Source of the DNA: a virus
Lineage: Duplodnaviria > Caudoviricetes
Direction: 5' to 3' (one strand)
Virus record (IMG/VR): IMGVR_UViG_3300042934_000556
Span: 1-56,646 of that record
DNA length: 56,646 bases
Shown: positions 361 to 56,174 of the stretch, piece by piece
How the letters are laid out: the number at the start of each line of letters is the position of its first letter
Numbering within the stretch: position 1 is the stretch's first letter
Made by a program: the position numbers and the translations under genes
The notes under the pieces: generated by a model
Told to the model about the DNA's origin: nothing
The model's input: only the letters and a program-made list of their open reading frames with translations
Database searches by the model: none

Positions 361-624
361 CTACGAGACGGACGCGAAGGGCTTCCAGTTCTCGGTCACT
401 CTGATGTGGAGGCCCGAAACGTTCTCGGTGATGATCTCCAGAATTGCGTCTTCGATGTCCGCATCCTGAAGTTCTTCTGGAAGTTCGTCGGACGTCCTGG
501 TCACCCGCGCTAGTAGGGCAAGGGAGTGGTGGCCCTGTTCCAGGTCATACTGGAGCCACTCATCCCAATGGGTGAAAGGGTTGTAAGGATTGTCGATGGT
601 GGTGAGCATGTGGTTCTCGCTCAT
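361..624 (-). CDS. Hypothetical acidic protein, translationally coupled to the RNA polymerase gene
   Basis: 87-aa ORF with ATGA overlap to the RNAP stop; motif LTTIDNPYNPF. Confidence 0.75.
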   Translation of the reverse strand: MSENHMLTTIDNPYNPFTHWDEWLQYDLEQGHHSLALLARVTRTSDELPEELQDADIEDAILEIITENVSGLHIRVTENWKPFASVS

Positions 625-32648: not shown

Positions 32649-35600
32649 TACGTCAGAGCTCCCTTCGTGGTTGACAGTTGATTCTTTGTCTGACGGTAGA
32701 TCTCCGCCGAAGACAGAGCCTTGGGCGAAGTGTTGTTTTGGATGTAGGTGATGGAACCGAGAGGATTGGTCTCGATCTCATCGGCTGCGGCTTGATTACT
32801 TGCGTAACCCGAAGCGACATACCTCGCCTTGGCATAGGCCGAGTCGATGGGAATATAGGAAGATCCGAACATCCCACTGATCCCAGCGACATCCCTACGG
32901 ACACTGGACAGGTCCAGAACCGGAGTGATTACTGGTTGCATGTCGTTCTCGTTGGTGATCAAGTCGGAGAAACCCGTGAGCGACTTCCTAAGAGATTCGA
33001 CGGCAGCCGTTCCAGTGCGGGCGGCAGACCGTTCGACGGAACCGGACATTTCGTCCAGGCCCTTGATGAGTCCCTGCGCGGAATATCCTCCCATCTCCAT
33101 GAATACACGAGATGGAGACTTGATCTTCAGCTTGGTCTTGATGGCCCTGATCATTGCCGCAGCAATGACATCCATCTGCTTCTCGATGAACTTCTGCTGA
33201 GACTTCAGACCGTTCAGAATACCCTTGGCCGAGTCGACACCTGCCTGGTAGAGAGCATCCGAACCCGTCTTACCAATATGAGCGCCTGCTGCGTCAAGAT
33301 CCTTACCGAGCTTGTTGACCTCGTTAACGCCCTGAATACCCTTGTCGAGAAGTTCGGTTACGAACGGCAGAGCACTGGGGCCCTGCTCCAGCAGATCCTT
33401 GTAGAGCTCGTCGTTGAGACCGAACCCACGCAGCTTCTGAAGCGCATTCGAGAACAGCTTGGTATCCTCGATCTGCTTCTTAAGCTCCTCCACGTAGCTC
33501 GAATATGTCGTCTCTGCTGTAGGGCTTGCAACGTCCGAGTACTTGTCGGTGATTTGCTTGCGGTAGTCGTCCCGAGTCTTGATGGCGGCTTGATATGCCT
33601 CGTCCGCCTTCTTGATCTTCTCAGTGAGGATGTCGTACTTGTCGGCGAGTTTACCTATAGCGGTCTTCTCGTCGTTGAGCGATTTGGTCAGGGCAGTATA
33701 GGCTTCTGCGGCCTTCTTGCGTTCCGATGAAGAAGCCTTAGAACTCTTTGAGAGATCTTTAAGCATCTTCTTCAGATCGTCAAATGCCTTGTAAACCTGA
33801 CCCTTGTTTCCGTCAAGCCCCTTTCTGAAACCATCGTTTACGTAGTTACCAAGCTTCTCGAATTCCTTGGAAGGAGAGTTGATTCCAAGGAAATCCTTAG
33901 CCGAATTGTACGCCGAGCTGGCAACTTCACGAGCTGCCGATGCTACAGCTCCTACACCGCTGGCAAGCCCCTTAACCATACCTTCGATGATTGCGCCAGC
34001 CAGATTTCGACCAGCTTGATTCATAGCGTCGGTGTTTTCGCGGATGGTTTTGGCCATACCATTTATGAAACTAATGATCATTTTGACGCCAGCGTCAATG
34101 ACCTTCGGAAGATTCCGCCCGATACCCTCGATGAACTTCACGACCACTCGAGTAGCCTGATCGATCACGTCACCGAGGTTGTTCGCAATGCCTCGGAGGA
34201 TACCCGTCAACAACTTGAGTCCGGCATCGACCATCTTCGGGACGTACTGTGCAAGCTTCTGAAGAAGCATCGTGAGCATACGCAGAAGTGCGTCCACGAT
34301 CTTCGGAGTAAGCCTGACGATCGCAGAGATGAGTGACTCCATCACTGTGACAATGGCCTTGGTGATGGAAGGACCGGCTGTGGCTATAACCTCAGCAAAG
34401 GCGATAAGTCCCAAGCCGATTTGCTTCATGACCTCCGGAATAAGACCTATGAGACCGGCCACGATCCCGATGATCATTGCTGTTGCAGCGCCACCAGCCG
34501 CAGCCAATGCCGTAAGTGCAGCAGCGAACAGAAGCACTCCTGCTCCAGCAGCCAACATGCCGACGCCCAGTAGAGCGACGCCCACGCCCAGACCGATGAT
34601 GGCTGGAACCACCGGGGCCAGAATAAGACCCGCCAGACCGATGACCACAAGGGCACCGGCCAGCATGACAAGACCCTTACCTATCTCCTCCCAGGTCATC
34701 CCGCCGAAAGCAACGAGCACGGGATGAAGAACCCACAGCGCCGCTGAAACGACGAGTAGAGCAGCCGCTCCGGGAAGCGCCCCGGTCATGAGGAACAGGG
34801 CCCCGGCGATCAAACCGAGGGTACCTGCCAACATGACCATGGACTTGCCGATTTCTTCCCAAGAGAACTCTGACATTTTGACGAGAACGCCGGTAACCTG
34901 CTGAAGAGCAAGCACTGTGATCAACATCGCAGCCGCACCGAGAGGAGCAGTCGGCGGAATGACGTACAAAGCTGCCGCCATCAAGCCGAGAGCACCTAGC
35001 ATAACTGTCAGACTCTTCCCGATCTCACCCCAAGACATCTTGGCCATGTCTTCGAGGGCGTCGGCGACCTGACCTAGTGACAGTGCCACGAGAAGAATAC
35101 CCGCGCCAGCAAGTGGTGCAGTAGGAGGGATGAGTTTGAGAGCTCCCGAGATGACGACGAGACCACCGGCCAAGGCCGCTAGACCCTTTCCGATTTCGCC
35201 CCAGGACATCTTAGAGAAGTCCTCTACGGCACTGGCGAGGATCTTGATCCCTGCCGCCAGCAATACGATTCCGGCCGCCTGAGCCAGTCCGCCCTTATTG
35301 GCCTTGGCGAACATGGTGAAGAGAGTTAGCGCTCCGAGAAGAGCACCGACTCCCACGAGACCCTTGGCAAGTTCGTTCCAGCCAAGGCTCGACAGGTCTT
35401 CTACCGCACTGGCCAGGATCTTGATCGCCCCGGCGAGAACGATCATAGCAAGACCTGTGGTTATGAGACCCTTGGGGTTCTTCATGAGTTGAGAAACCCC
35501 GACAAGGGCCCCGAGAAGACCAATTGTGCCGGTCAACCCCTTGGCCAACTCGTTCCAGTCCAGAGCAGCGAGGTCTTCGACGGCCTGGGCAAGAATAAGG

Positions 35601-43846: not shown

Positions 43847-45895
43847 TCAGGCAGACTTGCGCTTGAACGTCCAGGAGTCCTCCGCCGTGTTGGCGAAGTA
43901 GTAGCCGTCCAGGGCGACCGCGTAGACGGTCGTGGAGGCACCGGCCGCCAGAGCGGGCTGGGCACCCGGGGTCAGGACCGCGTCGTTGCTGTCACGGTAC
44001 TCCACGCCGGTGACCGTCGGGATGGTCACGACGCCGGTGGTCGAGTTGAAGGTCGGCTGAACCGGCTCGACGAGGTTGTCGGCAGACGCCACCGTCTTGA
44101 TGACCAGAGCCGACTTCGGTCGGATGAGGGCACCCGATGCACGGGTCTCCATCAGGTACTTGTACTGGTTGTAGTCGATGTCGAAGTCGTCGAACATCGT
44201 CAGCTCGCCACCACGGTCGGTGCCGACGTTGTAGTCCGCCAGGTTGACGATGATTCCGATCAGGTCGGAGATCTCCTTCATCGGCTCGACGGTGACGATC
44301 TTGTCGACGCCCAGCGCGTCCGCGACCTCGCCTCGGTTCTTGTAGAGCCGCTGACCGTTCAGGTCACGGGCCTGCAGGAACTTGTTGAGCTGGGGGATCG
44401 TGGTGAAGAACGTCGGGGTACCGGTCCCCTTGTAGTACTCCATGCCGTCCATGACGCCGTCGACGACGACCTCGTAGCCCAGGTCGTTTCCGGTGGCCGT
44501 CGGGTTGACGAACAGCGTGGTGACGAACAGCTCGTGGTCGTTGAGAATCGACCGGATGCCGGAGCCGCTGGAGGCGCCCATCGGGTCCTTGACCTTGTCC
44601 TCGTCGGCGATGTCTCGACCGTCACCGATGAGGACCGCACGTGCGAACTCCTCCTCGGTCATCAGACGCATCTCGCCCTTGAGGAAGGCGACCATGTCGA
44701 AGTCGGTGATGTCGAGCAGGTCGTCGCGGTCGAGCTTCTGCTTCTTGTAGATTGTGGTCGGGTCGGTGGTCCGCTTGGTGACGCCGAACCACTCCTCGCG
44801 CTTGTAGTTCCCCTTGATGTAGCCCTTGGCACGGGCCTCGTCCTGGGTCAGGTCGGCGGCGAAGGTCTTGATCCGGGAGAACGGGGTGTGTCGGGTGCTG
44901 TTGAGGACCGTGGCAACCCACTCGGTCCGACGCTTGTCGAGCTCGATGACGCCGGTCGCGGCCTTGGCGTCCGGGAACAGGATGTCGATGTTCTCGATGC
45001 CGTGCTGCAGGTTGTCCTTGGCGTACTGCTCGACAGCCGCCTTGAGAGAGCCGCGCTTCTCGGCGTCGGCGAAGATGCCCTTGAGGGCGTCGTGGGAGAG
45101 CTCGTGCTTGGCACTGCCCTTGTCGTCGGTGTTGGTCTGGTCGAAGACGTTGCGCGACATGTGGTTGCCGGCTCCTTCCTGGTGGGTGAGGTCGCCGCCA
45201 TCGGCGGACTTGTCGGAGTGCTCGGCGGAATTCGCCTTTGCTGCGTCCTGGAGTGCGACGCCGATCAGATAGTGGACGACGTTCTTCTGCTCTTCGTCGA
45301 AGGTCTCGTAGACGTCGTTGATGGTGAGATCGTCGTCGTCCTCGTCACCATCGGCGTGCTGAAGATCCTCGTCGTCCTCGTCACCGTCTTCCTCGTCTTC
45401 CTCGTCTTCCTCGTCGGAGTTTCCGGCGTGGTCGAGCTCGAGTCCCGTGTGGATGACGGCTTCGTCCTCAAGTGTCTCGAAGTCGCCATCGCCGTGGTTG
45501 ATGTTGACGAAGTCGATCTTGGCGCCGGGATTGGCCCCGGCCAGGACCAGGCTGACCTCGCGGATGATTCCGTGGAGGACTTCCTTGCCCTTCTCCACCA
45601 GGTTGTTGGCGTAGATGGAGAGATGCTTGATGTCACCGTGCTCGACGAGGCTTCGGGCGTTCTTCCCCTGCTCGGTGTCGTTGAAGAACGCGTAGGCGTA
45701 GACACCCTCGTCGCGGTGCTCGAGGACCGCGTGACCGAGGACGTTCTTCGCGTCGCTGTGTCCGTGCTGCCAGACCAGAGGAACCTGCTGGTGGTGCATC
45801 TTCTCGAAGGCACCGCGCATAATGGTCCGACCGTCGGAGCACCTGAGGCCAGCCTTGGTGGCCCAGCCGCCGAAGTCAGCTTCGATTACTGCCAT
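43847..45895 (-). CDS. Prohead protease - scaffold - major capsid fusion (HK97 fold) with C-terminal accessory domain
   Basis: N-terminal FGGWAT...PLVWQH...LSI...EVSLV..GANP protease; acidic linker; capsid domain. Confidence 0.88.
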   Translation of the reverse strand: MAVIEADFGGWATKAGLRCSDGRTIMRGAFEKMHHQQVPLVWQHGHSDAKNVLGHAVLEHRDEGVYAYAFFNDTEQGKNARSLVEHGDIKHLSIYANNLVEKGKEVLHGIIREVSLVLAGANPGAKIDFVNINHGDGDFETLEDEAVIHTGLELDHAGNSDEEDEEDEEDGDEDDEDLQHADGDEDDDDLTINDVYETFDEEQKNVVHYLIGVALQDAAKANSAEHSDKSADGGDLTHQEGAGNHMSRNVFDQTNTDDKGSAKHELSHDALKGIFADAEKRGSLKAAVEQYAKDNLQHGIENIDILFPDAKAATGVIELDKRRTEWVATVLNSTRHTPFSRIKTFAADLTQDEARAKGYIKGNYKREEWFGVTKRTTDPTTIYKKQKLDRDDLLDITDFDMVAFLKGEMRLMTEEEFARAVLIGDGRDIADEDKVKDPMGASSGSGIRSILNDHELFVTTLFVNPTATGNDLGYEVVVDGVMDGMEYYKGTGTPTFFTTIPQLNKFLQARDLNGQRLYKNRGEVADALGVDKIVTVEPMKEISDLIGIIVNLADYNVGTDRGGELTMFDDFDIDYNQYKYLMETRASGALIRPKSALVIKTVASADNLVEPVQPTFNSTTGVVTIPTVTGVEYRDSNDAVLTPGAQPALAAGASTTVYAVALDGYYFANTAEDSWTFKRKSA

Positions 45896-45912: not shown

Positions 45913-46407
45913 TTACTTCTTAGATGTTGTGTTCCGGGCTCCGACGGAGCCGTTCTTGCGCATCTTCTCGATCCGCTCCTGCATGGTCTTGATCTTCGCC
46001 TTTAGCGACTTGACCTCGTCTTCGAGAAGCTTGTCCTTGTTCTTCTCGTAGTACTCCTTGGACGCCTTTGCAGCCTTGGATTTCTGAGCTGCAGTCTGCT
46101 TAGTCGATGACTTCGCTGCGGACGAAGCCTTCTTCTCTGGCGTCTTTTTGGTTTCAGCGCCACTTCGGGCTTTGGCCTGCTCGGTCAATACCGTCAGAGC
46201 CTTACGAAGCTTTTCCAACCGACTTTTGAGGGCTGTCACTTCGGCCTCGAGCTTCTTGCGCCTTTCGGCTTGACGCTGGGCTCTGGTCTTGGTCGCTGGC
46301 TTGAGTGTGACGCCCTTCTTCGTACGACCCTTCAACTGACGGGTCTTCAAGTAGTAGGCGCGTCGTTTCGCCGGGTCGTACTCGTGGACGATCTCGTCAG
46401 CCATCAT
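45913..46407 (-). CDS. Basic coiled-coil hypothetical protein
   Basis: EIVHEYDPAKRRAYY...; Lys-rich; lies between portal and capsid genes. Confidence 0.7.
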   Translation of the reverse strand: MMADEIVHEYDPAKRRAYYLKTRQLKGRTKKGVTLKPATKTRAQRQAERRKKLEAEVTALKSRLEKLRKALTVLTEQAKARSGAETKKTPEKKASSAAKSSTKQTAAQKSKAAKASKEYYEKNKDKLLEDEVKSLKAKIKTMQERIEKMRKNGSVGARNTTSKK

Positions 46408-47753
46408 TCGGCCCCAAGGCTCTGGAGCATGGAGTCGATCATCGCATTGGCTTCAGCGATTCCGCTCTGAACCAGATCTTCCCCTTCGTCTTCGGAGTCC
46501 TCCTCTTCCAAGGCAGAGCCCGAATCGACCGGAGATGTTGTTGGATCTCCGGCCTGAGGCATGTTGCTGTTGACAAGCTGGTCGGCCTTCGGGTCCTTGG
46601 AGGGTTTGAAGCCGATGCCCTGTCGGATCTCGTTGGCGGAGAGGACTTCGTTTCGAGTGAACTTGTCGGCGATCTCAGCGATCTGCTCCATCGGAACGAG
46701 CTTGAACGGGTCGCGGAAGTACATGATCGACTGCTTCTGAGACCGGGCCGTTTTGGTCAGGAAGGTCTTCTTCATGGCCTCCGAGATCGCCTGAACGACG
46801 GGCTCGATGGTCCGGCTGAAGTAGTTCAGCATGGCCTTCTCGTCAGCCGTGCCGTTCATGACCTCCTCCGTCAGACCAAGCTGAGCGTAGAGGATGCTCG
46901 TGAGGTACTCGATCTGCTTGAGGAGATTGTTCTCGACCGGCCGGTTGAGCTGCGTGATTTTCTCGGTACCATCGGTATAGGCGATACCGTACTGACTCCC
47001 CTTGAGCTGGAACTCAATATCCTTACGCCTTTGTTCGGCTTGCTGCCGTCTGGCTTCGGATTTGATCACGTAAGGAAGCTGAATGATCATGTCGAGCTTA
47101 CCGGAACTCGACTGCTCGTCCACCGAGTCCAACATGTTGAGCTTGTGAATGAGTCGTTTAAGTGTCGAGTTCGGTTCGTTCATCACCGAATATAGGGGGT
47201 TCTCGACGATCGCGGTGTACTTCTTTTCGACCGTGACTTGCTTCCTCTGCCCAACCCGGTCGTCGTAAAGACTTACTGTTACGTGTCGGGGATGCCATGC
47301 CACGATCTCGCCGACTCGAAGACTCCGGATGGTATAACTCGCCGACTCGGACGGATTAATATCTGTCTCTACCGGAACGATCGCCGCCGTACCATGTTCG
47401 AACAGCGTCATTGCTATGTCCTGACGGAACTGTCGGGCGCCCTGGTCGATGTTGGGTTCAACCTGGAGACAATCCTGGAGTCCGCTGTCCATGTCTTCGA
47501 GGTAACGTCCCTCCTCGTCGGTTCGGACGTGTCGAATATCGACACCAGCGACATCGATACCGAGCCTGGTGTAGATTGACGAGATGATGGATCGTTCGCT
47601 GGAATATGACGACCGACTACGACTCGAAGGAGAGTAGTAGTACCCTGTACTCTCGTGTCCGCCGAAGGAGCGGACGCCGGTGTAGTTGTCATCGAGAAAG
47701 ACGTTCCAACTGTGCTTGAGAGTCCTCTTTACTCGCGAAAGCAAACCTGCCAT
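46404..47753 (-). CDS. Portal protein
   Basis: 449 aa; HK97-like LQVEPN and LSANEIR..IG..P motifs. Confidence 0.88.
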   Translation of the reverse strand: MAGLLSRVKRTLKHSWNVFLDDNYTGVRSFGGHESTGYYYSPSSRSRSSYSSERSIISSIYTRLGIDVAGVDIRHVRTDEEGRYLEDMDSGLQDCLQVEPNIDQGARQFRQDIAMTLFEHGTAAIVPVETDINPSESASYTIRSLRVGEIVAWHPRHVTVSLYDDRVGQRKQVTVEKKYTAIVENPLYSVMNEPNSTLKRLIHKLNMLDSVDEQSSSGKLDMIIQLPYVIKSEARRQQAEQRRKDIEFQLKGSQYGIAYTDGTEKITQLNRPVENNLLKQIEYLTSILYAQLGLTEEVMNGTADEKAMLNYFSRTIEPVVQAISEAMKKTFLTKTARSQKQSIMYFRDPFKLVPMEQIAEIADKFTRNEVLSANEIRQGIGFKPSKDPKADQLVNSNMPQAGDPTTSPVDSGSALEEEDSEDEGEDLVQSGIAEANAMIDSMLQSLGAE

Positions 47754-47789: not shown

Positions 47790-48446
47790 CTAACCGATCC
47801 CCATGTTCTTGAGCATCTCCTGGGCAGACTTTTGACCGTTCGGATCGGTAGCCTTCTTGTAGGCCTTCTTACCAGCGTCGGCAATGGTCTTGTCGATACC
47901 GGCCTTGTGGGCCCAGAGAGCGCCTCCGACCACGATTGCCGTTGCCGCCGAGGCATACTGCGAATTACCTCTGAGGATATGGCTCGTGCCTCGAATACCC
48001 TTGCGGGTGCTGTTTGCAACGTTCTTGCGTTTACGCTCGCCCTTGGCCTTGTCTGCGTGCTTGGACATGTCCTGATTGGACAGATGAGCGTCGAAGGCCT
48101 TCTTGTACGCCGGATTCTTACTCTTGCCCTCGACCTTGGCTTTGATCAGCTTTCGTCGAGTACCAGCGCCTTCGCCGTAGAACATCTTGGCTCGGGCGAA
48201 CTCCTTGGCATCCTTGGCGGCGTCTCGGTTGATCGATCTGGACACTCCGTTGGGGCGGGACTTACGGATGCCCCATTTCATACCCTTGACACCGTAGTGA
48301 ACAAGTTCGCCGTTTACATAAGAGTGGAAGAACTCATCGTCCAAGATAACAGCTCCCGGAGCATTGCGAATCTCTTCGAGTCTCCGCGTCATACTCTCCT
48401 CATCGGGGATTTGAGAGGGCAATATGAAACCGGGGGACCTGTACAT
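47790..48446 (-). CDS. HYGVKGMKWG-motif protein, basic
   Basis: ELVHYGVKGMKWGIRK. Confidence 0.8.
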   Translation of the reverse strand: MYRSPGFILPSQIPDEESMTRRLEEIRNAPGAVILDDEFFHSYVNGELVHYGVKGMKWGIRKSRPNGVSRSINRDAAKDAKEFARAKMFYGEGAGTRRKLIKAKVEGKSKNPAYKKAFDAHLSNQDMSKHADKAKGERKRKNVANSTRKGIRGTSHILRGNSQYASAATAIVVGGALWAHKAGIDKTIADAGKKAYKKATDPNGQKSAQEMLKNMGIG

Positions 48447-48447
48447 G

Positions 48448-49281
48448 TTACTTCACCTCCTTAAAAGGTGTTGGGTCGACACCCATCTCTTTGTGTAGAG
48501 TTTTACCCCATTCCTGAACGTACCTTGGCGGGTTGGTCCCCCAGTGATATGCACTGAAGAGTTCAGCTTCCAACTCGCCTCTCTCCATGGTGCTCATCGC
48601 GTAATCGGATACGTCCCAGATTTGGCGTCCCTCGCGAGCGGCTACTTTCTGAGCAACCTTCAGAGCCTTGTTTCGAGCTTCGATGTTCCCACCCGAGACC
48701 TTTTGCCTACCACGAGAATCGGTAGTCAATTGCTGGGTGGAATGAAATATGGCGTGAGAATTCTCATGAGTGATCAGACCCTTCACGTTACCGGTACCCG
48801 CGTGGTTCCAATTCCCATCGGCATCTTGGAGCTCACGGCGCATGTCTCGAGCGCCGACGAAGATTGTACCTTCGTTAGCCGAACCGAGTTCCTGAGTGTT
48901 CTCTACGAAAGCGAGGAAACTCTTCTCGAGTTCAGGCGTGTATATCGGGTGACTTTTGTCGAAGACCTTTACGTCCTTGACTGTGTAACCGTACCGATCA
49001 TGCATGAGACGAGCAACTTCGAGAGCACCCGAGGCAGTGCTACTGTGAACTCGAGAATCAATTCTAGGCGGTGTGAAAGGCTGCCTAGAGGTCGTCTCCT
49101 CGTCCTTACGAACACCCCACTTCATACCCTTGACACCATAGTGAACAAGTTCACTGTCGAAGTCGCTGAATTCGAATAGAGTAAAACCCGTAGTTTCCTC
49201 GGATCGCCTTCGAAGATCGTCTTTGAGTTCTTCCTGGGAAGAATATGCCGACGGAAGGACGAATCCAGGCGTTCTGGACAT
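48448..49281 (-). CDS. HYG-motif protein with zincin-like (HExxH) domain
   Basis: ELVHYGVKGMKWGVRK; THENSH...SDYA...ELEAELF. Confidence 0.8.
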   Translation of the reverse strand: MSRTPGFVLPSAYSSQEELKDDLRRRSEETTGFTLFEFSDFDSELVHYGVKGMKWGVRKDEETTSRQPFTPPRIDSRVHSSTASGALEVARLMHDRYGYTVKDVKVFDKSHPIYTPELEKSFLAFVENTQELGSANEGTIFVGARDMRRELQDADGNWNHAGTGNVKGLITHENSHAIFHSTQQLTTDSRGRQKVSGGNIEARNKALKVAQKVAAREGRQIWDVSDYAMSTMERGELEAELFSAYHWGTNPPRYVQEWGKTLHKEMGVDPTPFKEVK

Positions 49282-49284
49282 CGG

Positions 49285-49989
49285 TCACTTCCTTTCCTTG
49301 AATGGGGTCGGGTCGATCCCCATTTCTGCGTGAAGAGTCTGCCCCCATACCGTTACGAAAGAAGGCGGTTTCGGATGCCAGTGGTACTGTGAGAAGAGTT
49401 CGGCTTCGATCTCCTCATGGCCGTGCGAGGAAGCTGCGTAACCAGACAGCTTCTCCAATAGTCTGTGTTCTGATATACCCTTACGCTGTGCCTCGTCGAC
49501 CATGGCTTGGAGAGCCTTCATTCGGGCTTCTTTCTCCCCACCAACTACCTTTCCATTCTCGTCGTACTTCTCCCGTGAATGGAATATCGCGTGTGCAGAT
49601 TCGTGGGTGATGAGCCCTATCGGGTTCCCCAAACCTTTCCCTACCCAGCCCGTCTTCTCGGAGGCCTTCATCTCTCGAGTGGGATCACGTATGGCGAGGT
49701 AAATATCACCTTCGAGTTTTTGCTTACCATTGTTCGCAACGTAACCGAGGGTGCCTCTCGAGTATTCTTCGTGACCAGGAGCGATGGCTTTGATCTCTCG
49801 AACCTTGTAGCCGTATCGCTCTTGGATCAGAGCTGCGACCTCACGAGCGGCTTGCTGGGAAACCACATGGACTCTAGAGTCCATCTTGGGGCTTTCGCCA
49901 ACGGACTGAAAACGTCCAGCGACATCATCATCCTTACGGACGCCCCACCGCATACCCTTGACGCCATAGTGGACGAGTTCGTCGGTCAT
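49285..49989 (-). CDS. HYG-motif protein with zincin-like (HExxH) domain
   Basis: ELVHYGVKGMRWGVRK; THESAH...SGYA...EIEAELF. Confidence 0.8.
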   Translation of the reverse strand: MTDELVHYGVKGMRWGVRKDDDVAGRFQSVGESPKMDSRVHVVSQQAAREVAALIQERYGYKVREIKAIAPGHEEYSRGTLGYVANNGKQKLEGDIYLAIRDPTREMKASEKTGWVGKGLGNPIGLITHESAHAIFHSREKYDENGKVVGGEKEARMKALQAMVDEAQRKGISEHRLLEKLSGYAASSHGHEEIEAELFSQYHWHPKPPSFVTVWGQTLHAEMGIDPTPFKERK

Positions 49990-50960
49990 GACCCCAGCTT
50001 GTGGTCGCTCTTCTTGTGGGCGGCGAGAGCGAGGCTAGAGAGGCTTACTGTTCCGTAGGCCTTCAGAATATCCGAGGTCTTGGCCTTGCCGGTGGCCAGA
50101 CGCTTTTCCTGATCTCGAAGCTTCTTGGCTCTACGAGCTGCCTCGTTCTTGAGGCCACCGCTCCGGACGAGGTTGGCGGCCGTGGAGTTCATGGCGGTTG
50201 CGAACTTCTCCATCTTCGTAGCCGTGCCGTCTGCCACTCTTTCTAGACGGGCTGCGCGGAGATTCAAGTCGCCGGTTCGAGCCTTGCGGACGCCCCACTT
50301 CATACCCTTGACGCCGTAGTGCTTGAGTTCGGAATGCTTCGCTTCATCGAAGTTGTATTCCATGTTCGTCAGACCTCCCCACATTCCGGCGCCAGATCCT
50401 GTCACTTCTCCGGTCACCTTGAAGCCGAGCTTCTCATAGATATGCCTAGCGTCGGGAGAGATCCCGGGTACTTCGAGGGTCATCTTCTTGAAGCCCTCCT
50501 GCTTACCAAAATCCCGTCCAGCCTGCATGACGGCTGTAGCATAACCTTTACCACGAGCGGACTTGTCGATCCCAAGCCAATTGAGATAAAGCTCGTCCTT
50601 GTTTCGCTTCGTGACGTAGGCATCTCCGACCTTTTTACCGGAGCCATCCAAGATGTCGAGACTGGCGTTCTTCGAGTACCACTCGCGATACTTCTTACTC
50701 ATCCTACCCGTGAGTTCAGCGACCTTGGTGGGCGGGACTTTCTGGAGTGTGATGGTCTCTCCCGAAGCCGTCTTACGACTTACCGTGTCCGGTCCGAGAG
50801 ATTTGAGTGGTTCTCGCGTTGGCTTGTCGGACTTCCGAACACCCCACTTCATACCCTTAACACCGTAGTGCTTGAGTCCCTCGCTCATTTCGGCAATGTT
50901 GCTCTCGATGAGATCGAGGAGGTCTCCGTACTCCGCTTCGAGATTGAAATCACTACTCAT
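49986..50960 (-). CDS. Double HYG-motif protein with GNAT acetyltransferase domain
   Basis: LKHYGVKGMKWG twice; ARGKGYAT and ARHIYEKLGF GNAT motifs. Confidence 0.8.
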   Translation of the reverse strand: MSSDFNLEAEYGDLLDLIESNIAEMSEGLKHYGVKGMKWGVRKSDKPTREPLKSLGPDTVSRKTASGETITLQKVPPTKVAELTGRMSKKYREWYSKNASLDILDGSGKKVGDAYVTKRNKDELYLNWLGIDKSARGKGYATAVMQAGRDFGKQEGFKKMTLEVPGISPDARHIYEKLGFKVTGEVTGSGAGMWGGLTNMEYNFDEAKHSELKHYGVKGMKWGVRKARTGDLNLRAARLERVADGTATKMEKFATAMNSTAANLVRSGGLKNEAARRAKKLRDQEKRLATGKAKTSDILKAYGTVSLSSLALAAHKKSDHKLGS

Positions 50961-50989
50961 TTTGACAGGACCTCCCTTCGAGGTCTCGT

Positions 50990-52030
50990 TTAGTACTTAC
51001 GATTCTCCAACTCGATGAGGCTGGCTTCGGCGAAGTTGATGTCGTCCTTGGTGAGAGGTTCATTCGACTTCTTACCGACAAGCTCACGAGCGAAGATGAC
51101 GAGAGGAGTCTCTCCGATGACGCCAGCGTCCATCTCATCGACAATTGCTCCATAACCCTTCTTACGGAGTGCGTCGAACATTCCCATGGCGTGGCCGTCA
51201 CTCCAACTACCACCACTGAGCTCTTGATACTTGGCCAAGACTCGTTCATCCGTGTACCAAGCCTCGAACTCTTTCTTACCGCCTATCAGAGATTCTTTCA
51301 GTGCTTCGAGTGTGGTCGACAGCTTTGGAACTCGAATGTCTTGCTCGGCTTGAAAGGTTACATGGTGAAGTGGTCCGAGCAGCTCTTGGCGGAACTGAGA
51401 TACATATCGATGGTAGTCTTCCAGGCTGTGAGTGGAATACGTCGCATCTCGAAACTCGGTTTCCGCTTTTTGTGAGAGTCGATGAAACTCGTGACCAGCC
51501 GGAAGGGTGAACTCGTCCCGCTCCCAAGAACTGTCTTTGATGTAGTCGTTACTACCCCAAGTTTTGATCTTGGAATGCATGACGTGCTTATGGAACGTCT
51601 CTGGACTGATCGACTTTCCGCGAAGTTCCTCAATGGACTTTACGGTCTTGGCTTCAGCAATCGCATTTGCTGCGATCAGACCAGCAATGGCACCGGTGAA
51701 TATCAGAGCTTTCTTGTGTCTGGCAACAAAGCTCTTCTTGGTTGGCTTCTCGTCTGAACCTTCGAGCTTGGCCTGAGACTTCTTCTCGTTGGCCTCCAGG
51801 TTTTTCTTGATCTGTTTGGCGTTGGGTTCCTTCTTGGGCTTGTGCGCCTTCTTCCACTTCTTGTCAGCGGAAGTCATGCGGTACTTGCCGGTCTCCTCGT
51901 CCTTTCGGACACCCCACTTCATACCCTTGACGCCGTAGTGGGTAAGAAACCTCTCGCTTCGGAGAATATCGTCAATGGCCGAGGCACCATGCTGAAGTAT
52001 CCGAGCAATCTCGTCTTCCGAACTACTCAT
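50990..52030 (-). CDS. HYG-motif protein with unknown C-terminal domain
   Basis: FLTHYGVKGMKWGVRK; hydrophobic segment; FHRLS...KGYGAIVD. Confidence 0.8.
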   Translation of the reverse strand: MSSSEDEIARILQHGASAIDDILRSERFLTHYGVKGMKWGVRKDEETGKYRMTSADKKWKKAHKPKKEPNAKQIKKNLEANEKKSQAKLEGSDEKPTKKSFVARHKKALIFTGAIAGLIAANAIAEAKTVKSIEELRGKSISPETFHKHVMHSKIKTWGSNDYIKDSSWERDEFTLPAGHEFHRLSQKAETEFRDATYSTHSLEDYHRYVSQFRQELLGPLHHVTFQAEQDIRVPKLSTTLEALKESLIGGKKEFEAWYTDERVLAKYQELSGGSWSDGHAMGMFDALRKKGYGAIVDEMDAGVIGETPLVIFARELVGKKSNEPLTKDDINFAEASLIELENRKY

Positions 52031-52042
52031 TTCACCTCCTTC

Positions 52043-53788
52043 CTACTCGAACTGTTCCTTGTTGAGCTTGTAAGCGATGAAAGCATCCATCATCGCAGCA
52101 ACGTTGTCGATCTTGGCTTCCTGACGCTTCTTAAGAAGCTTTCGGTTGCCGTTCGTGTCCTCCATGGTAATGGCGTTACCCATGGCAAAGGTCATCAGTG
52201 CCTGATCAAATATGAGCAAACGTTCGCCACTCAGAGCCTTGAGTTCCCCAAGCGGGACCGACTCTGTCTTCGCCCCCTGAATCACTTTCTCGATGCCGTA
52301 AGGCCCGTTCTCCGCTTCCCAGCGGGCTACAAACTCCTTTGCGTTGTAGGGGTCGAAACCAAGTGCGCGCACATCATAGTTACAGTCCTGGATATGGACG
52401 TCCAGGTCGTCGTAGACCTCCATCATGTCGAGGATCGTTCCCTCAAGAACGTGGAGGCTGCCCTCGTCTATGAACTCGTTGTACTTTTGGCGCATAGCTC
52501 CATGGAGCTTGAGCAAGGTCAACGAGGAAATGTAGCTGCGGGTCTTTACGCCAAATCCTCCGCCTCGCAGAGGGAAGATGAATGTGAACGCACAGAAGTC
52601 GTCACCCTGAGAGAGGTCCGCTCCAAGAGCGCAAGGCATTCCCCAGAAGGTTCGAGGATGGTGAGGCAGAGTCTCTTCGTAAGTGAAGAAGTACGTATAC
52701 CCCTCCATCGGAATCCCGAAACGCTTTGCCAGAATATCGTTCCGGGAAGCAGGAGCCTTCTCGGCTCGTTCAACGTCGAGTTGGTAGGTGTCATAGGTGA
52801 CGGTCTTCCCGAGATTGGGATTGGCCTTCAACCACATCGCCGGGTTTCCGACCTCTTCCAACTCATCCAATCGGTAATGCCAGATCGAAACGTGAGGTGC
52901 TTGATACTCGCCCTTGAGAATATCGGCAAGCTCGAGCTTGATGGTGTCACCGCTGCCGTTTCGAACGGTTCCCTCGGAGCTGACGGCTACAATGAGATAG
53001 TCGTCCAGCTTGGAAGAACCCTGTTCGATGGCGCCAATGACGTCTTCCCGGAGATCTCCCGAAAGCCACTCGTCGACGGTCGCTACCTTGGTTCGGAGGC
53101 CTTGGAGCTTGTTGATGGTCATTGGCCGGACCTCGAGCATCGATCCCGTGAGGAAGTTCTCGATACCCTTCTTGGTGGCAGCCAGTTTGACTCGGTTGGC
53201 CTTGGAACCAGTCGTGTTCTGTAGTGACCCTTCGGTCATGAACGAAAATAGCGGACCGCGACTTCTGGTGATTGCGGTCCTGATCGGCTGCATGACCTCT
53301 TCGGCTTGCTTCATGGTCGGAGCCGTGGTGATCTGGTGAGTCGTCGAGGTGTCCACGTTCAGAAAATAGCTCTGAAGACACGACTCATAGAGCGACTTGG
53401 CGGCGCCTCGTGCAACGATGAGGTACTGCTTGGTTGTCAACCGCTTCTTGATAACCTTGTCGACGTACCTACCCCCATGGTTGTCGGGATCGGGTTCGTA
53501 GACGCTCCGGTTGATGAAGTAGTACCAGCAGAATATCTGTTCGGCCCAGAGCTTGAACGAGTCGAGCAGATGAAGGTCACTCCCGTCGGTGAGAGTTAGT
53601 TCCTTCTCACAGTAGAGGACGAAGCCCTCGACCGGAGCAGGATCGTAGTAGATGTTCGGGTTGGCGATGAGTGCGTCGATGCGGTTCATCTCCAAGGAGA
53701 CTTCTCGGTTGACCGGAATATCACCGCGCATCACCGCCTCACGGAACTTGCCGTAGTAGTACGGTGTTGCCGTGTTCGACAGAGCCAT
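52043..53788 (-). CDS. terL: Terminase large subunit
   Basis: VARGAAKS (Walker A), VDE (Walker B), KANPNLG, GADLSQGDD, KIDNVAA. Confidence 0.93.
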   Translation of the reverse strand: MALSNTATPYYYGKFREAVMRGDIPVNREVSLEMNRIDALIANPNIYYDPAPVEGFVLYCEKELTLTDGSDLHLLDSFKLWAEQIFCWYYFINRSVYEPDPDNHGGRYVDKVIKKRLTTKQYLIVARGAAKSLYESCLQSYFLNVDTSTTHQITTAPTMKQAEEVMQPIRTAITRSRGPLFSFMTEGSLQNTTGSKANRVKLAATKKGIENFLTGSMLEVRPMTINKLQGLRTKVATVDEWLSGDLREDVIGAIEQGSSKLDDYLIVAVSSEGTVRNGSGDTIKLELADILKGEYQAPHVSIWHYRLDELEEVGNPAMWLKANPNLGKTVTYDTYQLDVERAEKAPASRNDILAKRFGIPMEGYTYFFTYEETLPHHPRTFWGMPCALGADLSQGDDFCAFTFIFPLRGGGFGVKTRSYISSLTLLKLHGAMRQKYNEFIDEGSLHVLEGTILDMMEVYDDLDVHIQDCNYDVRALGFDPYNAKEFVARWEAENGPYGIEKVIQGAKTESVPLGELKALSGERLLIFDQALMTFAMGNAITMEDTNGNRKLLKKRQEAKIDNVAAMMDAFIAYKLNKEQFE

Positions 53789-53803
53789 CGTCGACCCTCC
53801 CTT

Positions 53804-54352
53804 CTACGGTCTCCGTTCGCGCTCTCGTGCGATGTTCCTAGCAATGGCTCCGGCTCCTGCGGCTACGGCAGCAGAAGTGCCGCCAGTCGCGTAAGCAGCT
53901 CCTGCCGAAAGGGCCGTACCGAGACCCGTCTTGACGGCCTTTCCGGTTTCCGTCTCCAGGAATTTCCGAACCTTCTCGACGGTCTCGCCGTAAGCGAGAA
54001 CCTTCTTGACCTGATCGTGGCCCTTGTCGACAGATGACTTCTGGGGAGACCCAGGCGGGGGTGTCACAATATTCCGGTACTGGCGTTCCAGGTTCATGCG
54101 GGTCAGAAGACCTTGGAGTTCCTGGTTGCTGAGCGAATGTGTCCCGCCTTCGGCAATCTTGCGCTGGGCGTCCATGGCAGCCTTGACGTCGGCCGAGACC
54201 TTGGGTTTCGAAGCCGATCGAGACTCGGATGATCCGCCGGAACCGCCCGCTCGAGCGAGTTCTGCATCGGAGCGACGTACGCCCCACTTCATGCCCTTGA
54301 CACCGTGATGACTCAGGCTGCCGGAATAACCTCCGGGTCGGGATCGATCCAC
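53804..54352 (-). CDS. HYG-motif protein
   Basis: SLSHHGVKGMKWGVRR; LSNQEL...RMNLERQY; probable GTG start at 54352 after GAGGAGG. Confidence 0.75.
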   Translation of the reverse strand: MDRSRPGGYSGSLSHHGVKGMKWGVRRSDAELARAGGSGGSSESRSASKPKVSADVKAAMDAQRKIAEGGTHSLSNQELQGLLTRMNLERQYRNIVTPPPGSPQKSSVDKGHDQVKKVLAYGETVEKVRKFLETETGKAVKTGLGTALSAGAAYATGGTSAAVAAGAGAIARNIARERERRP

Positions 54353-54690
54353 TGGTCCTCCTCTCGCAGGACGTTGAGGCGCCACTCAAGTTCGGCGGCG
54401 GTCTTGTTCATGGCATCGAGGGCGAACGAGGTCCCTGGAGGATCGAAGAGAAGTCGTACCTTCAAGTACAGATACGACTTCACCATGTTCATCCGTGAGT
54501 CGCCCCCGATGAAGCTTTCCCACGTGGCCGTAGAGTCCTCGATCATGAACCCTTCGGTCGGACCTATCCCGACTTGGGTCAGGACTGAGATCATGCTGTT
54601 AAGATGAAGCATGATGTCGAGGTCGAACGAGGTGTCAGCCTCACTGAGACCGATGAGCTTCTTCGTTGACGTAAGGATGCTCTGCGCCAC
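54313..54690 (-). CDS. Head-tail connector/adaptor protein
   Basis: SIL...KKLIG...FD.DI...YLKVRLLFDPP...ELEWR. Confidence 0.7.
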   Translation of the reverse strand: MAQSILTSTKKLIGLSEADTSFDLDIMLHLNSMISVLTQVGIGPTEGFMIEDSTATWESFIGGDSRMNMVKSYLYLKVRLLFDPPGTSFALDAMNKTAAELEWRLNVLREEDQWIDPDPEVIPAA

Positions 54691-54727: not shown

Positions 54728-55612
54728 TCAGTCTCGACGATTGACCTCGGCCTGTACGGCGTCGTAGTTGTAACCCGCCTTCGTCAGCCGGGACTTGCGC
54801 TCGGCACCGTCACCCCAGTCGCCTCGGATGACCTGCGTGGCGACCTGGCTGACGGTCAGCTTGGGCTTGGTCTCGCCCTTGGGCGTGAGCAGCCGGTTGA
54901 CCTCGGCTTGGACCTTCTTGGCGTCGTAGCCCGCCTTCTTGAGACGAGAGACGCGGTCCGTTCCGTTGCCCCAGCCGCCTCGGCCCTCGATGATCTCGTT
55001 GGCGATCTGGCTGACGGTCTTCTTGACCGGCGGGTCGCCCGCCTTAAGACGACGAACCTCAGCCTGGACGACGGAGTAGTTGTAACCGGCTGCCCTCAGA
55101 CGGCTCTCTCGCTCTGGACCGTTCCCCCACTCACCCTTGATGACAGACTTTACGATCGCGTCGAGACTCAGGGGGCCGTCGTTCTTGTCGGGGGTGGAGG
55201 GGTCCGGGGAGGAGGGGGTGGGCTTTTGGTAGCTGCCCGAGAAGAACAGTGCGTGGACGTGGTCCTTGTGGTTCGCCGTGCTGTTACCTCGGTCAGCCAT
55301 GCCACGTACGACGCCGGGGCTGGTGACGGTCGAGGTGATCTTCTGGTACCAAATGACGTGCTGTAGGCGGAGCCGCTTACGGTTCTTCCAGATGTAGTTC
55401 CGAACCCAGTCACCGGCCGCCTTGTTGCGGACCATGAAGTCCAGGGCTCGGCCGCTGTGGTGCTCGGTGTTGCTGGCGTTGCCGTCGTACCCCCACATGT
55501 ACCAGACGTCGTGTCCGGCTTCCTGGGCAGCGTCGAAGACCTCCCGGGAAATGGACTTGGTGGTGGCGGTGATCTTACCGAGCTTGGCGCTGGCGTGGCT
55601 GTAGGTGGTCAT
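54728..55612 (-). CDS. Endolysin: M15/DD-peptidase-like catalytic domain plus three Cpl-7 (CW_7) repeats
   Basis: EHHSGRALDF...HKDHVH; three (V/I)I.G..WG.G..R..RL..AGY....VQAEV repeats; ATG at 55612 coupled to the upstream stop. Confidence 0.85.
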   Translation of the reverse strand: MTTYSHASAKLGKITATTKSISREVFDAAQEAGHDVWYMWGYDGNASNTEHHSGRALDFMVRNKAAGDWVRNYIWKNRKRLRLQHVIWYQKITSTVTSPGVVRGMADRGNSTANHKDHVHALFFSGSYQKPTPSSPDPSTPDKNDGPLSLDAIVKSVIKGEWGNGPERESRLRAAGYNYSVVQAEVRRLKAGDPPVKKTVSQIANEIIEGRGGWGNGTDRVSRLKKAGYDAKKVQAEVNRLLTPKGETKPKLTVSQVATQVIRGDWGDGAERKSRLTKAGYNYDAVQAEVNRRD

Positions 55613-55746
55613 GCGGACTGGTCCTCCTCGGCGTCGAAGTCGGCCGCGCTCTCTTCGGCGAGAACGGTGTCGGCCAGCTCGTCCTCGCTGACGTCGTTGA
55701 TCGGCGGGCAGGGCCCGGTGGGCTCGTCGGTCTTCTTGGTGGTCAT
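55609..55746 (-). CDS. 45-aa acidic peptide (not in ORF track)
   Basis: AGGAGGAG RBS; MTTKKTDEPTGPCPPINDVSEDELAD...; ATGA overlap with the endolysin. Confidence 0.65.
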   Translation of the reverse strand: MTTKKTDEPTGPCPPINDVSEDELADTVLAEESAADFDAEEDQSA

Positions 55747-55754
55747 TGCTCCTC

Positions 55755-56174
55755 CTACCAGAGCTTCGTGTCGCCGGGCTGTCGGGCAACGAGCGGACGG
55801 GGAAGTAGTCTCTCGTCGCCGTAGTGGATGGCGTTGTGCGTTCGGTGAGTAACCGTGATCAGGTTGTCCGGGTCGATGAGACAGGGGTCTCCGGATTCGA
55901 GTTGTTGGAGAGTGATGGGATTGATGTGATGAATATAGACCCGATCATGGATCTCATAACCCTCGATCCCAAGATCGCAACCTTCATCTCGGACGATGAT
56001 CCTGTCCCGAGCTTGGCGCCACTCTCGTGAGGTGTAGAACCCTTGGTTGACCCATCGGTCAAAACCAAAGGTCGCTTGTCCTACGTTCCCTCGAAGAGCG
56101 AGGTAGCGAAAACGTTCGGCGAACGTTGTCAGCTTACGAAGCTCTCGGTAACTCCTATTCATCGGGCTGCTCAA
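55755..56174 (-). CDS. HNH endonuclease (packaging-associated)
   Basis: FYTSREW...RD..C...IHHI.P...NL...THNAIH. Confidence 0.85.
   Translation of the reverse strand: MSSPMNRSYRELRKLTTFAERFRYLALRGNVGQATFGFDRWVNQGFYTSREWRQARDRIIVRDEGCDLGIEGYEIHDRVYIHHINPITLQQLESGDPCLIDPDNLITVTHRTHNAIHYGDERLLPRPLVARQPGDTKLW

Follow-up and report, generated by a model that had tools for sequence, protein, structure and literature searches.

Encapsulin cargo-loading peptides are short, disordered sequences found on diverse enzymes, which they direct into an HK97-fold shell; most are C-terminal and bind the shell protein directly, and they involve no protease and no delivery to another cell. In phages, the MuF (SPP1 gp7-like) toxin fusions are encoded by head-module genes close to those for terminase and portal and join a constant N-terminal part to swappable enzymatic C-terminal parts, a type of fusion that was reportedly the subject of a polymorphic-toxin study by Jamet and colleagues. 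Bacteriophage T4 uses a cleaved tag to package Alt, an ADP-ribosyltransferase, together with basic internal proteins, as described in PMC9026906, and giant phages package their own RNA polymerase, according to the account in PMC10052503. Here we analyze a 56,646-base stretch of viral DNA (IMG/VR record IMGVR_UViG_3300042934_000556, hereafter the window), a complete phage genome (CheckV 100%) in reverse orientation, in which one short peptide recurs in otherwise different proteins encoded around the large terminase and portal genes. The peptide belongs to the Pfam family PF23847 (DUF7211), hereafter the tag. We propose that it serves to load internal, probably ejected, proteins into the head and to mark them for processing, a proposal that we believe and doubt in about equal measure; that the core tag proteins, at least, reside in the virion seems somewhat more probable than the whole chain.

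A six-frame scan of the whole window for GM[KR]WG returned seven matches, all on the minus strand and none elsewhere (positions 48270-84, 49114-28, 49942-56, 50292-306, 50841-55, 51911-25 and 54281-95). They fall in six minus-strand open reading frames (ORFs), named here p193, p346, p324, p234, p277 and p218 after the lengths of their products in amino acids, which lie around the large terminase gene terL (52043-53788, minus strand; profile and homology matches) and upstream of the portal gene (46404-47753, minus strand; profile matches). The terL gene lies between p193 and p346, and the portal gene comes after p218. A sequence-only reading of the window had reported seven copies of the motif in six proteins flanking terL and the portal gene; the scan finds all of them, at positions that differ by one or two bases at most. 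The copies have the sequence L-x-H-[YH]-G-V-K-G-M-[KR]-W-G-[VI]-R-[KR] and are located, all on the minus strand, at 54272-54316 in p193 (copy 1, L-S-H-H-GVKGMKWGVRR), 51902-51946 in p346 (copy 2, L-T-H-Y-GVKGMKWGVRK), 50832-50876 and 50283-50327 as the first and internal tags of p324 (copies 3 and 4), 49933-49977 in p234 (copy 5), 49105-49149 in p277 (copy 6) and 48261-48305 in p218 (copy 7).

All six proteins match PF23847, a 25-position family without an assigned function in Pfam, with 40.2 to 77.9 bits (gathering cut-off 27), and none of the other eight proteins scanned alongside them does. A whole-genome scan with the same model gave seven matches over the cut-off, which are the same seven copies. 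The tag is preceded by leaders of 4 to 47 residues with an isoelectric point (pI) of 4.1-4.6, except for the p193 leader at pI 11.5. In both confident structural models, those of p234 and p346, the tag is disordered, with a predicted local distance difference test (pLDDT) score under 50 at the tag compared to approximately 87 overall. The tags are like the T4 capsid-targeting sequences of IPI-III and Alt, as these are described in PMC9026906, in being short N-terminal peptides common to unrelated, non-conserved proteins; no sequence similarity between the two was noted, and no comparison was run.

The TerL of the window is 99.8% identical to that of the Streptomyces phages DrGrey, Soshi and Psst4 (genus Rimavirus), the window being a genome of that genus. 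The tag and this type of terL co-occur host genus by host genus. In tblastn searches with a 27-residue piece around the p346 tag (E up to 1), the tag was found in 225 phage records at 862 places: Arthrobacter (95 records), Gordonia (55), Streptomyces (54), Curtobacterium (7), Microbacterium (4), Rhodococcus (4), Faecalibacterium (2), with a small remainder from elsewhere. Records with this terL type number 95 for Arthrobacter, 55 for Gordonia, 54 for Streptomyces, 7 for Curtobacterium, 5 for Rhodococcus, 4 for Microbacterium and 13 for Lactococcus; the tags of the Lactococcus phages, missed by tblastn, are diverged and were found with the Pfam model. A further 21 Streptococcus records possess a terL at only 26-28% identity, and tblastn detected the tag in none of these 21. 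Five relatives from four host genera were scanned whole, and all 20 of their over-cut-off PF23847 matches are upstream of the portal gene, so that together with the window the tag is confined to head-module genes in all six genomes examined.

Extra tag copies are present at the extreme left genome end, upstream of annotated gene 1, in phage GirlPower (record position ~205; L001 ~11674, minus strand) and in Gordonia phage Crocheter (1004-1069). The GirlPower copy is in an unannotated frame, and the window has no counterpart of it. The Arthrobacter phage Paella (MT771347.1), at 113.7 kb twice the size of the others, has seven tag places, one of them in a gene annotated as a membrane protein.

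A second line of evidence comes from the capsid precursor (43847-45895, minus strand), a 682-residue fusion of a prohead protease (S78), an acidic spacer (residues 131-298) and an HK97-type capsid protein. The protein has a pI of 4.6 and matches S78 at 26.9 bits (cut-off 21), Phage_capsid at 20.9 bits, below the cut-off of 24.2, and phrog_3270 at E 4e-260; its orthologue in Lactococcus phage 1706 passes both Pfam domains. It has at least 7,999 relatives in a large protein collection (E up to 1e-10). Across the precursor, 14 of 22 His residues have L, I, V, M or F at position -2. In the spacer of the window this applies to 8 of 11 His residues, against a background of 17% (binomial p 8e-5). The corresponding spacer counts, which for the distant relatives leave out any His at slice position 1 or 2, are 6/6 in phage 1706 (p 1.4e-4), 7/7 in Lactococcus phage P118 (p 1e-5) and 5/6 in Crocheter (p 1.3e-3), whereas no His of the capsid domain follows the pattern (0/2 in the window, 0/4 in 1706, 0/3 in P118 and 0/2 in Crocheter). 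The last spacer site, L-Q-H in the window, is directly before the conserved start of the capsid protein, [GA]-[IL]-x-[ND]-[IL]-D-[IV]-L-F-P, in all four phages.

The sites are also conserved in an alignment of the window precursor with 42 of 120 listed homologs. In these 43 sequences the spacer is 50% conserved compared to 76-77% for the flanking domains; H134, H180, H238 and H298 are invariant, and the residue at -2 is hydrophobic in 98-100% of the sequences. Spacer His residues are 72% conserved, other spacer residues 49%. Eight of the 43 sequences were sampled for their number of hydrophobic-x-His sites, which was 6-8 per spacer and 0-1 per capsid domain. This pattern is as expected if hydrophobic-x-His were the site of a maturation protease that cuts up a scaffold-like spacer. 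T4 cuts at L/I-x-E according to PMC9026906, and SPN3US at a motif of its own according to PMC10052503. In T4, as proposed here from the sequence, the targeting peptide is linked to a prohead-protease site consisting of a hydrophobic residue, any residue and a specific residue (PMC9026906, in the parts that deal with these sites); the window phage would differ in having His rather than Glu at P1, and it differs in infecting Gram-positive bacteria, in being a siphovirus and in having its S78 protease fused to the capsid protein. The c2-type phage Nocturne116, which has a fused protease-scaffold-capsid protein and a solved head, appears to cut between Arg and Ser, as far as PMC13595954 describes it, so that His specificity would be particular to the lineage of the window. 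Nocturne116 was considered as a guide to the cleavage site and was rejected, being of a different lineage with a different junction.

Two further proteins of the window, both absent from the seven copies of the sequence-only reading, carry a variant of the same arrangement. One is a probable YonO/crAss-type single-chain RNA polymerase of 927 residues with a DFDGD loop (621-3404, minus strand), which starts with an acidic stretch, L-V-H-Y-G-I, a basic run and W-G-S-G (tag variant at 3321-3374, minus strand). The pattern L-x-H-Y-G-[IT]-x-R-basic-S-G-R-Y-P-[WY]-G-S-G opens the polymerase in all six phages compared, i.e., the window phage, Arthrobacter phage Makai, Rhodococcus phage ReqiPoco6, Crocheter, 1706 and P118. 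The other is a basic coiled-coil protein of 164 residues (phrog_12541) encoded between the portal and capsid precursor genes (45913-46407, minus strand). It begins M-M-A-D-E-I-V-H-E-Y-D-P, and [LI]-x-H-E-Y-D-P-x-K is kept after leaders of differing length in its DrGrey, Crocheter and ReqiPoco6 homologs. Both variants are outside the PF23847 model: the N-terminus of the window polymerase gave no match to it, and the Crocheter and ReqiPoco6 polymerases gave only 14-bit half matches, below threshold. Tag proteins, polymerase and coiled-coil protein, i.e., three protein classes, thus have one layout, with a variable, mostly acidic leader, a hydrophobic-x-His and a conserved block. The polymerase gene is at the far genome end from the head genes, and the protein has helix-turn-helix regions at both ends. 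Homologs in relatives are annotated as RNA-dependent RNA polymerase (RdRP); a match to the RdRP profile and the motifs are given for this polymerase family in 10.1101/842583, while the window protein itself did not match Pfam PF05183 (RdRP) at E up to 0.01. In Makai there is no gene at the position of the coiled-coil protein.

In the giant phages SPN3US and PhiKZ, many proteins internal to the head, the RNA polymerase of the phage among them, undergo processing by the prohead protease at a short motif, which also recurs many times in long propeptides (PMC10052503, in the parts cited); this is like what we propose here. Those phages are jumbo myoviruses with a multisubunit RNA polymerase and a different cleavage motif, no common tag is described for them in the parts of PMC10052503 cited, and their packaging was measured by mass spectrometry, whereas for the window phage it is proposed. 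Packaging of the window polymerase in the virion is a doubtful possibility.

If the spacer motif were unrelated, the tag could be a cytoplasmic binding peptide that has nothing to do with the capsid and recruits late accessory enzymes to a common partner such as RNA polymerase, terminase, DNA or a host protein. The variant on the RNA polymerase would fit such a role, as would the basic character of the tag, which could bind nucleic acid. The confinement of the tag to head-module genes in every genome examined, its one-to-one relationship with this type of head module, and a hydrophobic-x-His shared with the spacer beyond chance all speak for the capsid instead, and we consider a cytoplasmic peptide unlikely. 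It is from the co-occurrence with the head module, from the hydrophobic-x-His in common with the capsid precursor spacer and from a database label on a tag protein of phage 1706 (described below) that we infer loading into the capsid and injection with the DNA, both of which the sequence-only reading had suggested.

The proteins that carry the tag are diverse. The sequence-only reading had listed two HExxH zincin-like domains, one GNAT and several unknown domains downstream of the motif, a description that the ORF, Pfam and alignment data bear out. The first of the two zincin-like proteins, p234 (49285-49989, minus strand), has the tag at residues 5-19 and a T-H-E-x-x-H motif; T128-H129-E130, H133, E193, E195 and E197 are invariant in 46 sequences drawn from 77 listed relatives. 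The p234 model (pLDDT 87.2) is confident except for residues 1-29, which include the tag, and its neighbors in an exhaustive structural alignment are mainly zinc peptidases: the N-domain of Certhrax (Z 7.8), the catalytic domain of anthrax lethal factor (7.5), 4l7a (6.7), YbeY (6.6), PPEP-2 (6.2) and Wss1 (6.1). Among solved structures no usable sequence match was found for p234 (best E 0.51), and neither zincin-like domain matched a Pfam family. The predicted fold is described here as zincin-like, with middling scores. The second, p277 (48448-49281, minus strand), is a paralog that is 47% identical to p234 and has a 44-residue acidic leader before the tag.

The p346 protein (50990-52030, minus strand; phrog_7502) has, after the tag, a basic region, then a long helix of hydrophobic character (Kyte-Doolittle 1.71 over 19 residues) and finally a C-terminal domain (approximately residues 170-340) with a predicted ADP-ribosyltransferase/RES-like fold. 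It was modeled with an alignment of 68 of 150 listed representatives, out of 1,318 relatives (E up to 1e-3), giving a pLDDT of 87.5 overall and 96 to 98 in the C-terminal domain. Of its 25 best structural neighbors, 22 are ADP-ribosyltransferase (ART) or nicotinamide adenine dinucleotide-using toxin folds, all under Z 8: MbcT (6.6), SAIP (5.6), diphtheria-type toxins (5.2), ParT (5.2) and Xre-RES (5.1), followed by PARPs, pertussis toxin, Tse6 and DarT. R184, R208, Y209, D298 and D301 are invariant. The best Foldseek row for p346 is a pre-ejectosome chain of cyanophage A4 (E 4.2e-3); at E up to 1e-3 Foldseek found no PDB match for the p234 or p346 models. At the sequence level p346 matched no ADP-ribosyltransferase family in Pfam or among the sequences of solved structures (best E 0.46), and an Atlas search returned only other tag-bearing clusters and a weak ART-PolyVal lead (24% of a cluster, score 0.83). 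We refer to the C-terminal domain as ADP-ribosyltransferase-like, on middling model scores.

The p324 protein (49986-50960, minus strand; pI 9.8) has two modules, a tag followed by a GNAT domain and a second tag followed by a basic C-terminal module (phrog_17496). The GNAT domain, at approximately residues 100-190 between the two tags, matches Acetyltransf_1 at 42.1 bits (cut-off 20.7). DrGrey has only the second module, as a 117-residue gene product. The most widely conserved cargo is p218 (47790-48446, minus strand; phrog_6291), encoded directly upstream of the portal gene, with a 47-residue acidic leader, the tag and a basic cargo (pI 10.1). The p193 protein (53804-54385, minus strand; phrog_11022; PF23847 41.8 bits) is encoded between the head-tail connector gene and terL, is basic (pI 10.5) and ends in a Gly/Ala-rich segment. 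The p193 ORF from its GTG start (54313-54385) overlaps by 73 bases the end of the connector gene (54313-54690, minus strand; PF24829), an overlap also present in the DrGrey annotation, and its true start may be downstream of the GTG.

In position, and weakly in sequence, p193 is the counterpart of orf7 of phage 1706, which lies between the connector gene and terL and has two tags (PF23847 41.8 bits). The two proteins are 25% identical over 87 residues (pairwise E 3e-5) in an alignment that extends beyond the tag, and both match phrog_7021. The 1706 orf7 carries the GenBank label "structural protein", unconfirmed against the source paper. In the same record orf11, orf12 and orf17 are also so labeled, as are orf62 and orf71 in a non-structural region; labels outside the structural module suggest that the 1706 labels come from virion analysis and not from homology. 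For the tag protein gp020 of ReqiPoco6, the designation as a virion structural protein derives only from its similarity to 1706 gp07.

Between relatives the cargoes are patchily distributed, with 150 records in the phage collection for p218, 102 for p193, 42 for GNAT (approximately 31 in the supercluster described below), 33 for p346 and 13 for the zincin. This uneven distribution points to a conserved core and a variable shell. The same modules also occur fused or separate. GNAT, tag and p218 cargo are fused in 3 of 120 listed p218 relatives, a 2H phosphoesterase and zincin in 2 of 77 listed zincin relatives, and in ReqiPoco6 gp015 and Crocheter gp15 a 2H phosphoesterase module precedes an internal tag. 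In the fused forms (GNAT with cargo, 2H phosphoesterase with cargo, and 2H phosphoesterase with zincin) the tag sits between the modules, and it is N-terminal when the same modules are separate genes. The claim of the sequence-only reading that one conserved tag is joined to interchangeable payloads is well supported by this comparison of repertoires (13 to 150 records per cargo) and by the 225 records and 862 places of the tag. Its further claim, that the genes are organized like a polymorphic-toxin system, holds only loosely. The window genes resemble MuF toxin fusions in their head-module position by terminase and portal and in having enzymatic C-terminal parts that can be exchanged behind a constant N-terminal one, but the constant part of MuF proteins is a folded domain of approximately 100 residues and here it is a disordered peptide of approximately 20 residues. 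Several separate tagged genes are present per genome, half of the cargoes are non-enzymes, at least three of these being small and basic, and in the six proteins no MuF/SPP1 gp7 domain (Phage_Mu_F) or other known toxin-delivery domain was detected with Pfam at E up to 0.01. The absence of a MuF domain indicates that this is not a MuF-toxin system. There is no sign of immunity genes, for which the spacing of the tag genes, by 1 to 30 bases or small overlaps, leaves no room.

Hydrophobic or Gly/Ala-rich segments are found in p193, p218 and the C-terminal module of p324, besides the p346 helix, and could place the proteins in the membrane or envelope of the infected cell, for lysis timing or superinfection exclusion, with the tag as a cytoplasmic anchor or sorting peptide. 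The "membrane protein" annotations of some relatives and a lysin gene in the same left-end block are compatible with this. However, p234, p277 and the GNAT module have no hydrophobic segment, none of the tag proteins has a signal-peptide-like N-terminus, the leaders being acidic, and channel-building ejection proteins usually have hydrophobic helices too, as stated for P22 in PMC8402733. A membrane role for the tag is thus very unlikely in our judgment.

The basic cargoes and the coiled-coil protein raise another alternative, in which the tag proteins go into the prohead only to assist assembly, in a scaffold-like or size-determining role, are degraded by the protease and leave before or during DNA packaging, so that nothing is delivered. 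The coiled-coil protein, a possible scaffold or internal protein, looks scaffold-like and has the same His leader; the conserved core cargoes, p218 and p193, are small non-enzymatic proteins of basic character, and the precursor is acidic. Prolate heads, which are given for relatives in the descriptions of PMC5513430 and PMC7302621, need length control. A role limited to assembly leaves unexplained why the tag is on zincin-like, GNAT, ADP-ribosyltransferase-like and 2H phosphoesterase proteins and on the RNA polymerase; the label of 1706 orf7, moreover, implies that this protein is there in finished particles. We regard a role limited to assembly as improbable.

To these cargo differences the tag contributes as a site of recombination, as comparison with close relatives indicates. 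Relative to GirlPower the window has an extra 788 bases (48314-49101) that correspond to the p277 zincin cargo and are bounded by the tags of p277 and p218 (copies 6 and 7), p277 being absent in GirlPower. GirlPower gp11 is, judged by its sequence, a chimera with the crossover inside the tag. Before the tag it is closer to the p277 leader (106/125 bases, 85%) than to the p218 leader (49/122, 40%), after the tag it is closer to p218 (35/44, 80%) than to p277 (12/25, 48%), and across the tag it matches both at 43 of 53 bases. Two further break points are at tag copies: a segment of the window missing in DrGrey (50331-50957), which comprises leader, first tag and GNAT, has its end at the second p324 tag, copy 4, and the high identity to phages of the DrGrey type breaks off at the p234 tag (49934), copy 5. 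A non-orthologous pair, the p346 tag (51899-51940) and the GirlPower gp11 tag (L001 3472-3513), is identical at 42 of 42 bases, whereas orthologous flanks are approximately 83% identical. By a rough hand estimate from codon frequencies, such identity would arise by chance on the order of a few times in a hundred over 49 pairs, and it hints at exchange or gene conversion between tag copies.

The sequence-only reading had called the coding DNA of the copies nearly identical and suggested that this would allow payload swapping by recombination. The proposal stands because of the chimera and break points and not because the DNA is unusually alike. Mean column identity of the seven copies is 79% over 61 columns, synonymous positions differ, and identical-codon pairs number 134 of 232 compared to 105 expected from the phage's own codon usage, so that the likeness is mostly explained by the identity of the peptide. 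Recent transfer had also been considered, from near-identity to tags of Gordonia and Arthrobacter phages (41/42 bases and similar), and was rejected, since such matches between genera are expected from an identical peptide, codon bias and hundreds of copies. The same data bear on whether the repeat is a DNA element, i.e., a recombination or regulatory site with an incidental peptide, for which the mosaic break points at the repeat and the 42-base identity could be cited. The peptide is kept in AT-rich Lactococcus and GC-rich Streptomyces phages, always in frame inside a gene, while synonymous sites vary freely, which brings this explanation close to refuted.

Taking the tag as a loading and processing signal, the following sequence of events can be proposed. 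The protease of the precursor would trim the acidic spacer at hydrophobic-x-His sites. The six accessory proteins, the RNA polymerase and the coiled-coil protein each present a variable, mostly acidic leader, a hydrophobic-x-His and a conserved basic peptide, which in the six tag proteins is YGVKGMKWGVRK. This floppy peptide may dock the proteins inside the assembling prohead, with candidate partners in the acidic spacer, the interior of the capsid, the portal and the coiled-coil protein. Cleavage after His by the fused head protease would then take off the leader and divide proteins with two modules, p324 for example. The mature cargoes would remain in the head until infection and exit together with the DNA. 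They would comprise the two zincin-like hydrolases, the acetyltransferase, the ADP-ribosyltransferase-like protein, three basic proteins of small size and perhaps the RNA polymerase. Of these, the basic proteins of the core may serve to condense or escort the DNA, or to build an exit channel, and variable enzymes may act on host targets early in infection. Cargo sets would change between relatives by recombination within the tag.

We favor this reading because all tag copies are in head-module genes upstream of the portal gene (seven here, 20 in five relatives), because the tag and this terL type co-occur genus by genus, because hydrophobic-x-His is enriched and conserved in the precursor spacer and common to three leader classes, because the tag is disordered in models and placed at module boundaries, because 1706 orf7, a protein with two tags, is labeled structural, and because the cargo types parallel known packaged proteins (a pre-ejectosome chain for p346, Alt and the basic internal proteins of T4, and the RNA polymerase of giant phages). 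The system would work like the T4 capsid-targeting sequences and, among giant phages, like the virion polymerase and the ejection proteins that undergo processing, while belonging to neither group, and it resembles encapsulin cargo peptides only in principle. In T4, going by PMC9026906, as in the window and its relatives, the cargo includes small basic proteins and an ADP-ribosyltransferase (here an ADP-ribosyltransferase-like fold), and the repertoire varies among relatives. Packaging is demonstrated for T4, and here it is proposed.

Several points weigh against the proposal. The proposed cut precedes the part of the tag that is best conserved, which would remain with the cargo, whereas the targeting peptide of T4 is removed. 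In the literature searched, no virion proteome or N-terminal sequence was found for the phage or its close relatives, and cutting after His by S78-type proteases was not found documented; the Arg-Ser cut that Nocturne116 appears to make, going by PMC13595954, points the same way. The sole experimental hint is the database label on 1706 orf7, and in the same record the RNA polymerase, orf75, has no structural label. The hydrophobic or Gly/Ala-rich segments of p346, p218 and p193, like the annotations of relatives as membrane proteins, would also fit a role in the membrane of the infected cell, and the cargo fold assignments come from models with middling scores (Z 6.6 to 7.8). A complex prediction of protease residues 1-135, capsid residues 298-682 and p234 residues 1-40, made with alignments, scored 0.00 against a mark of 0.32; it was run without controls and speaks neither for nor against binding. 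The most complete version, in which the lineage loads swappable enzymes (a protease, an acetyltransferase, an ADP-ribosyltransferase-like protein and a 2H phosphoesterase among them) via one universal tag, the protease reads hydrophobic-x-His, the cargo is injected ahead of or with the DNA, and a YonO-type RNA polymerase is loaded likewise, seems to us tentative and rather unlikely in all its parts together.

The gene order of the window in this region is HNH, lysin, connector, tag protein, terL, tag proteins, portal, small coiled-coil protein and protease-capsid fusion. The same order is found in Crocheter, Makai and ReqiPoco6, and a reduced form of the head-gene order is present in P118 and 1706. 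These phages fall in a supercluster that, as delimited in 10.1101/842583, comprises Streptomyces cluster BI, Arthrobacter AM/AU/AW, Gordonia DJ, Rhodococcus CC and Microbacterium EL together with Lactococcus and Faecalibacterium phages, with an RdRP-like RNA polymerase containing a DxDGD loop as the signature given there. A fused protease-capsid gene is on record for clusters AM, AU and EL in the accounts of PMC5513430 and PMC7302621. The endolysin (54728-55789, minus strand) has three CW_7 repeats; its longest ORF starts approximately 59 residues upstream of the start of the PHROG endolysin profile, and since this extension is Arg-rich the real start is probably further in. The AT skew reaches +0.16 only in the 2-kb bin at 34001-36000, inside the gene for the 1824-residue tape-measure protein, and is negative in all other bins.

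The tag itself was already catalogued, as PF23847, and no description of a function for the tag, the motif or DUF7211 was found in the literature searched, including that on Rimavirus and on capsid-targeting or ejection proteins of actinobacteriophages. New here are the variant leaders on the RNA polymerase and coiled-coil protein, the statistics of the His sites in four lineages, the recombination junction, the ADP-ribosyltransferase-like cargo and the link to the labeled tag protein of phage 1706. The window represents a cultured, easily tested phage group, kept in teaching-lab freezers, for which virion mass spectrometry is routine. If the proposal is true, the tag would be a ready-made handle to package foreign proteins, such as reporters and enzymes, into phages that infect actinobacteria and lactic acid bacteria. 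A further prediction would be a cleavage specificity, after His, that is new for a common family of prohead proteases, and a YonO-type RNA polymerase would possibly travel in the virion; were the polymerase to travel in the head, early transcription would be host-independent, as in N4 and crAss-like phages. The proposal would also account for a block of hypothetical genes that all members of a very large phage lineage possess, a lineage that includes over 220 cultured phages of Streptomyces, Arthrobacter, Gordonia, Rhodococcus, Microbacterium and Curtobacterium, the Lactococcus and gut relatives, and thousands of metagenomic contigs, and siphoviruses of Gram-positive bacteria would gain an equivalent of the T4 internal-protein system.

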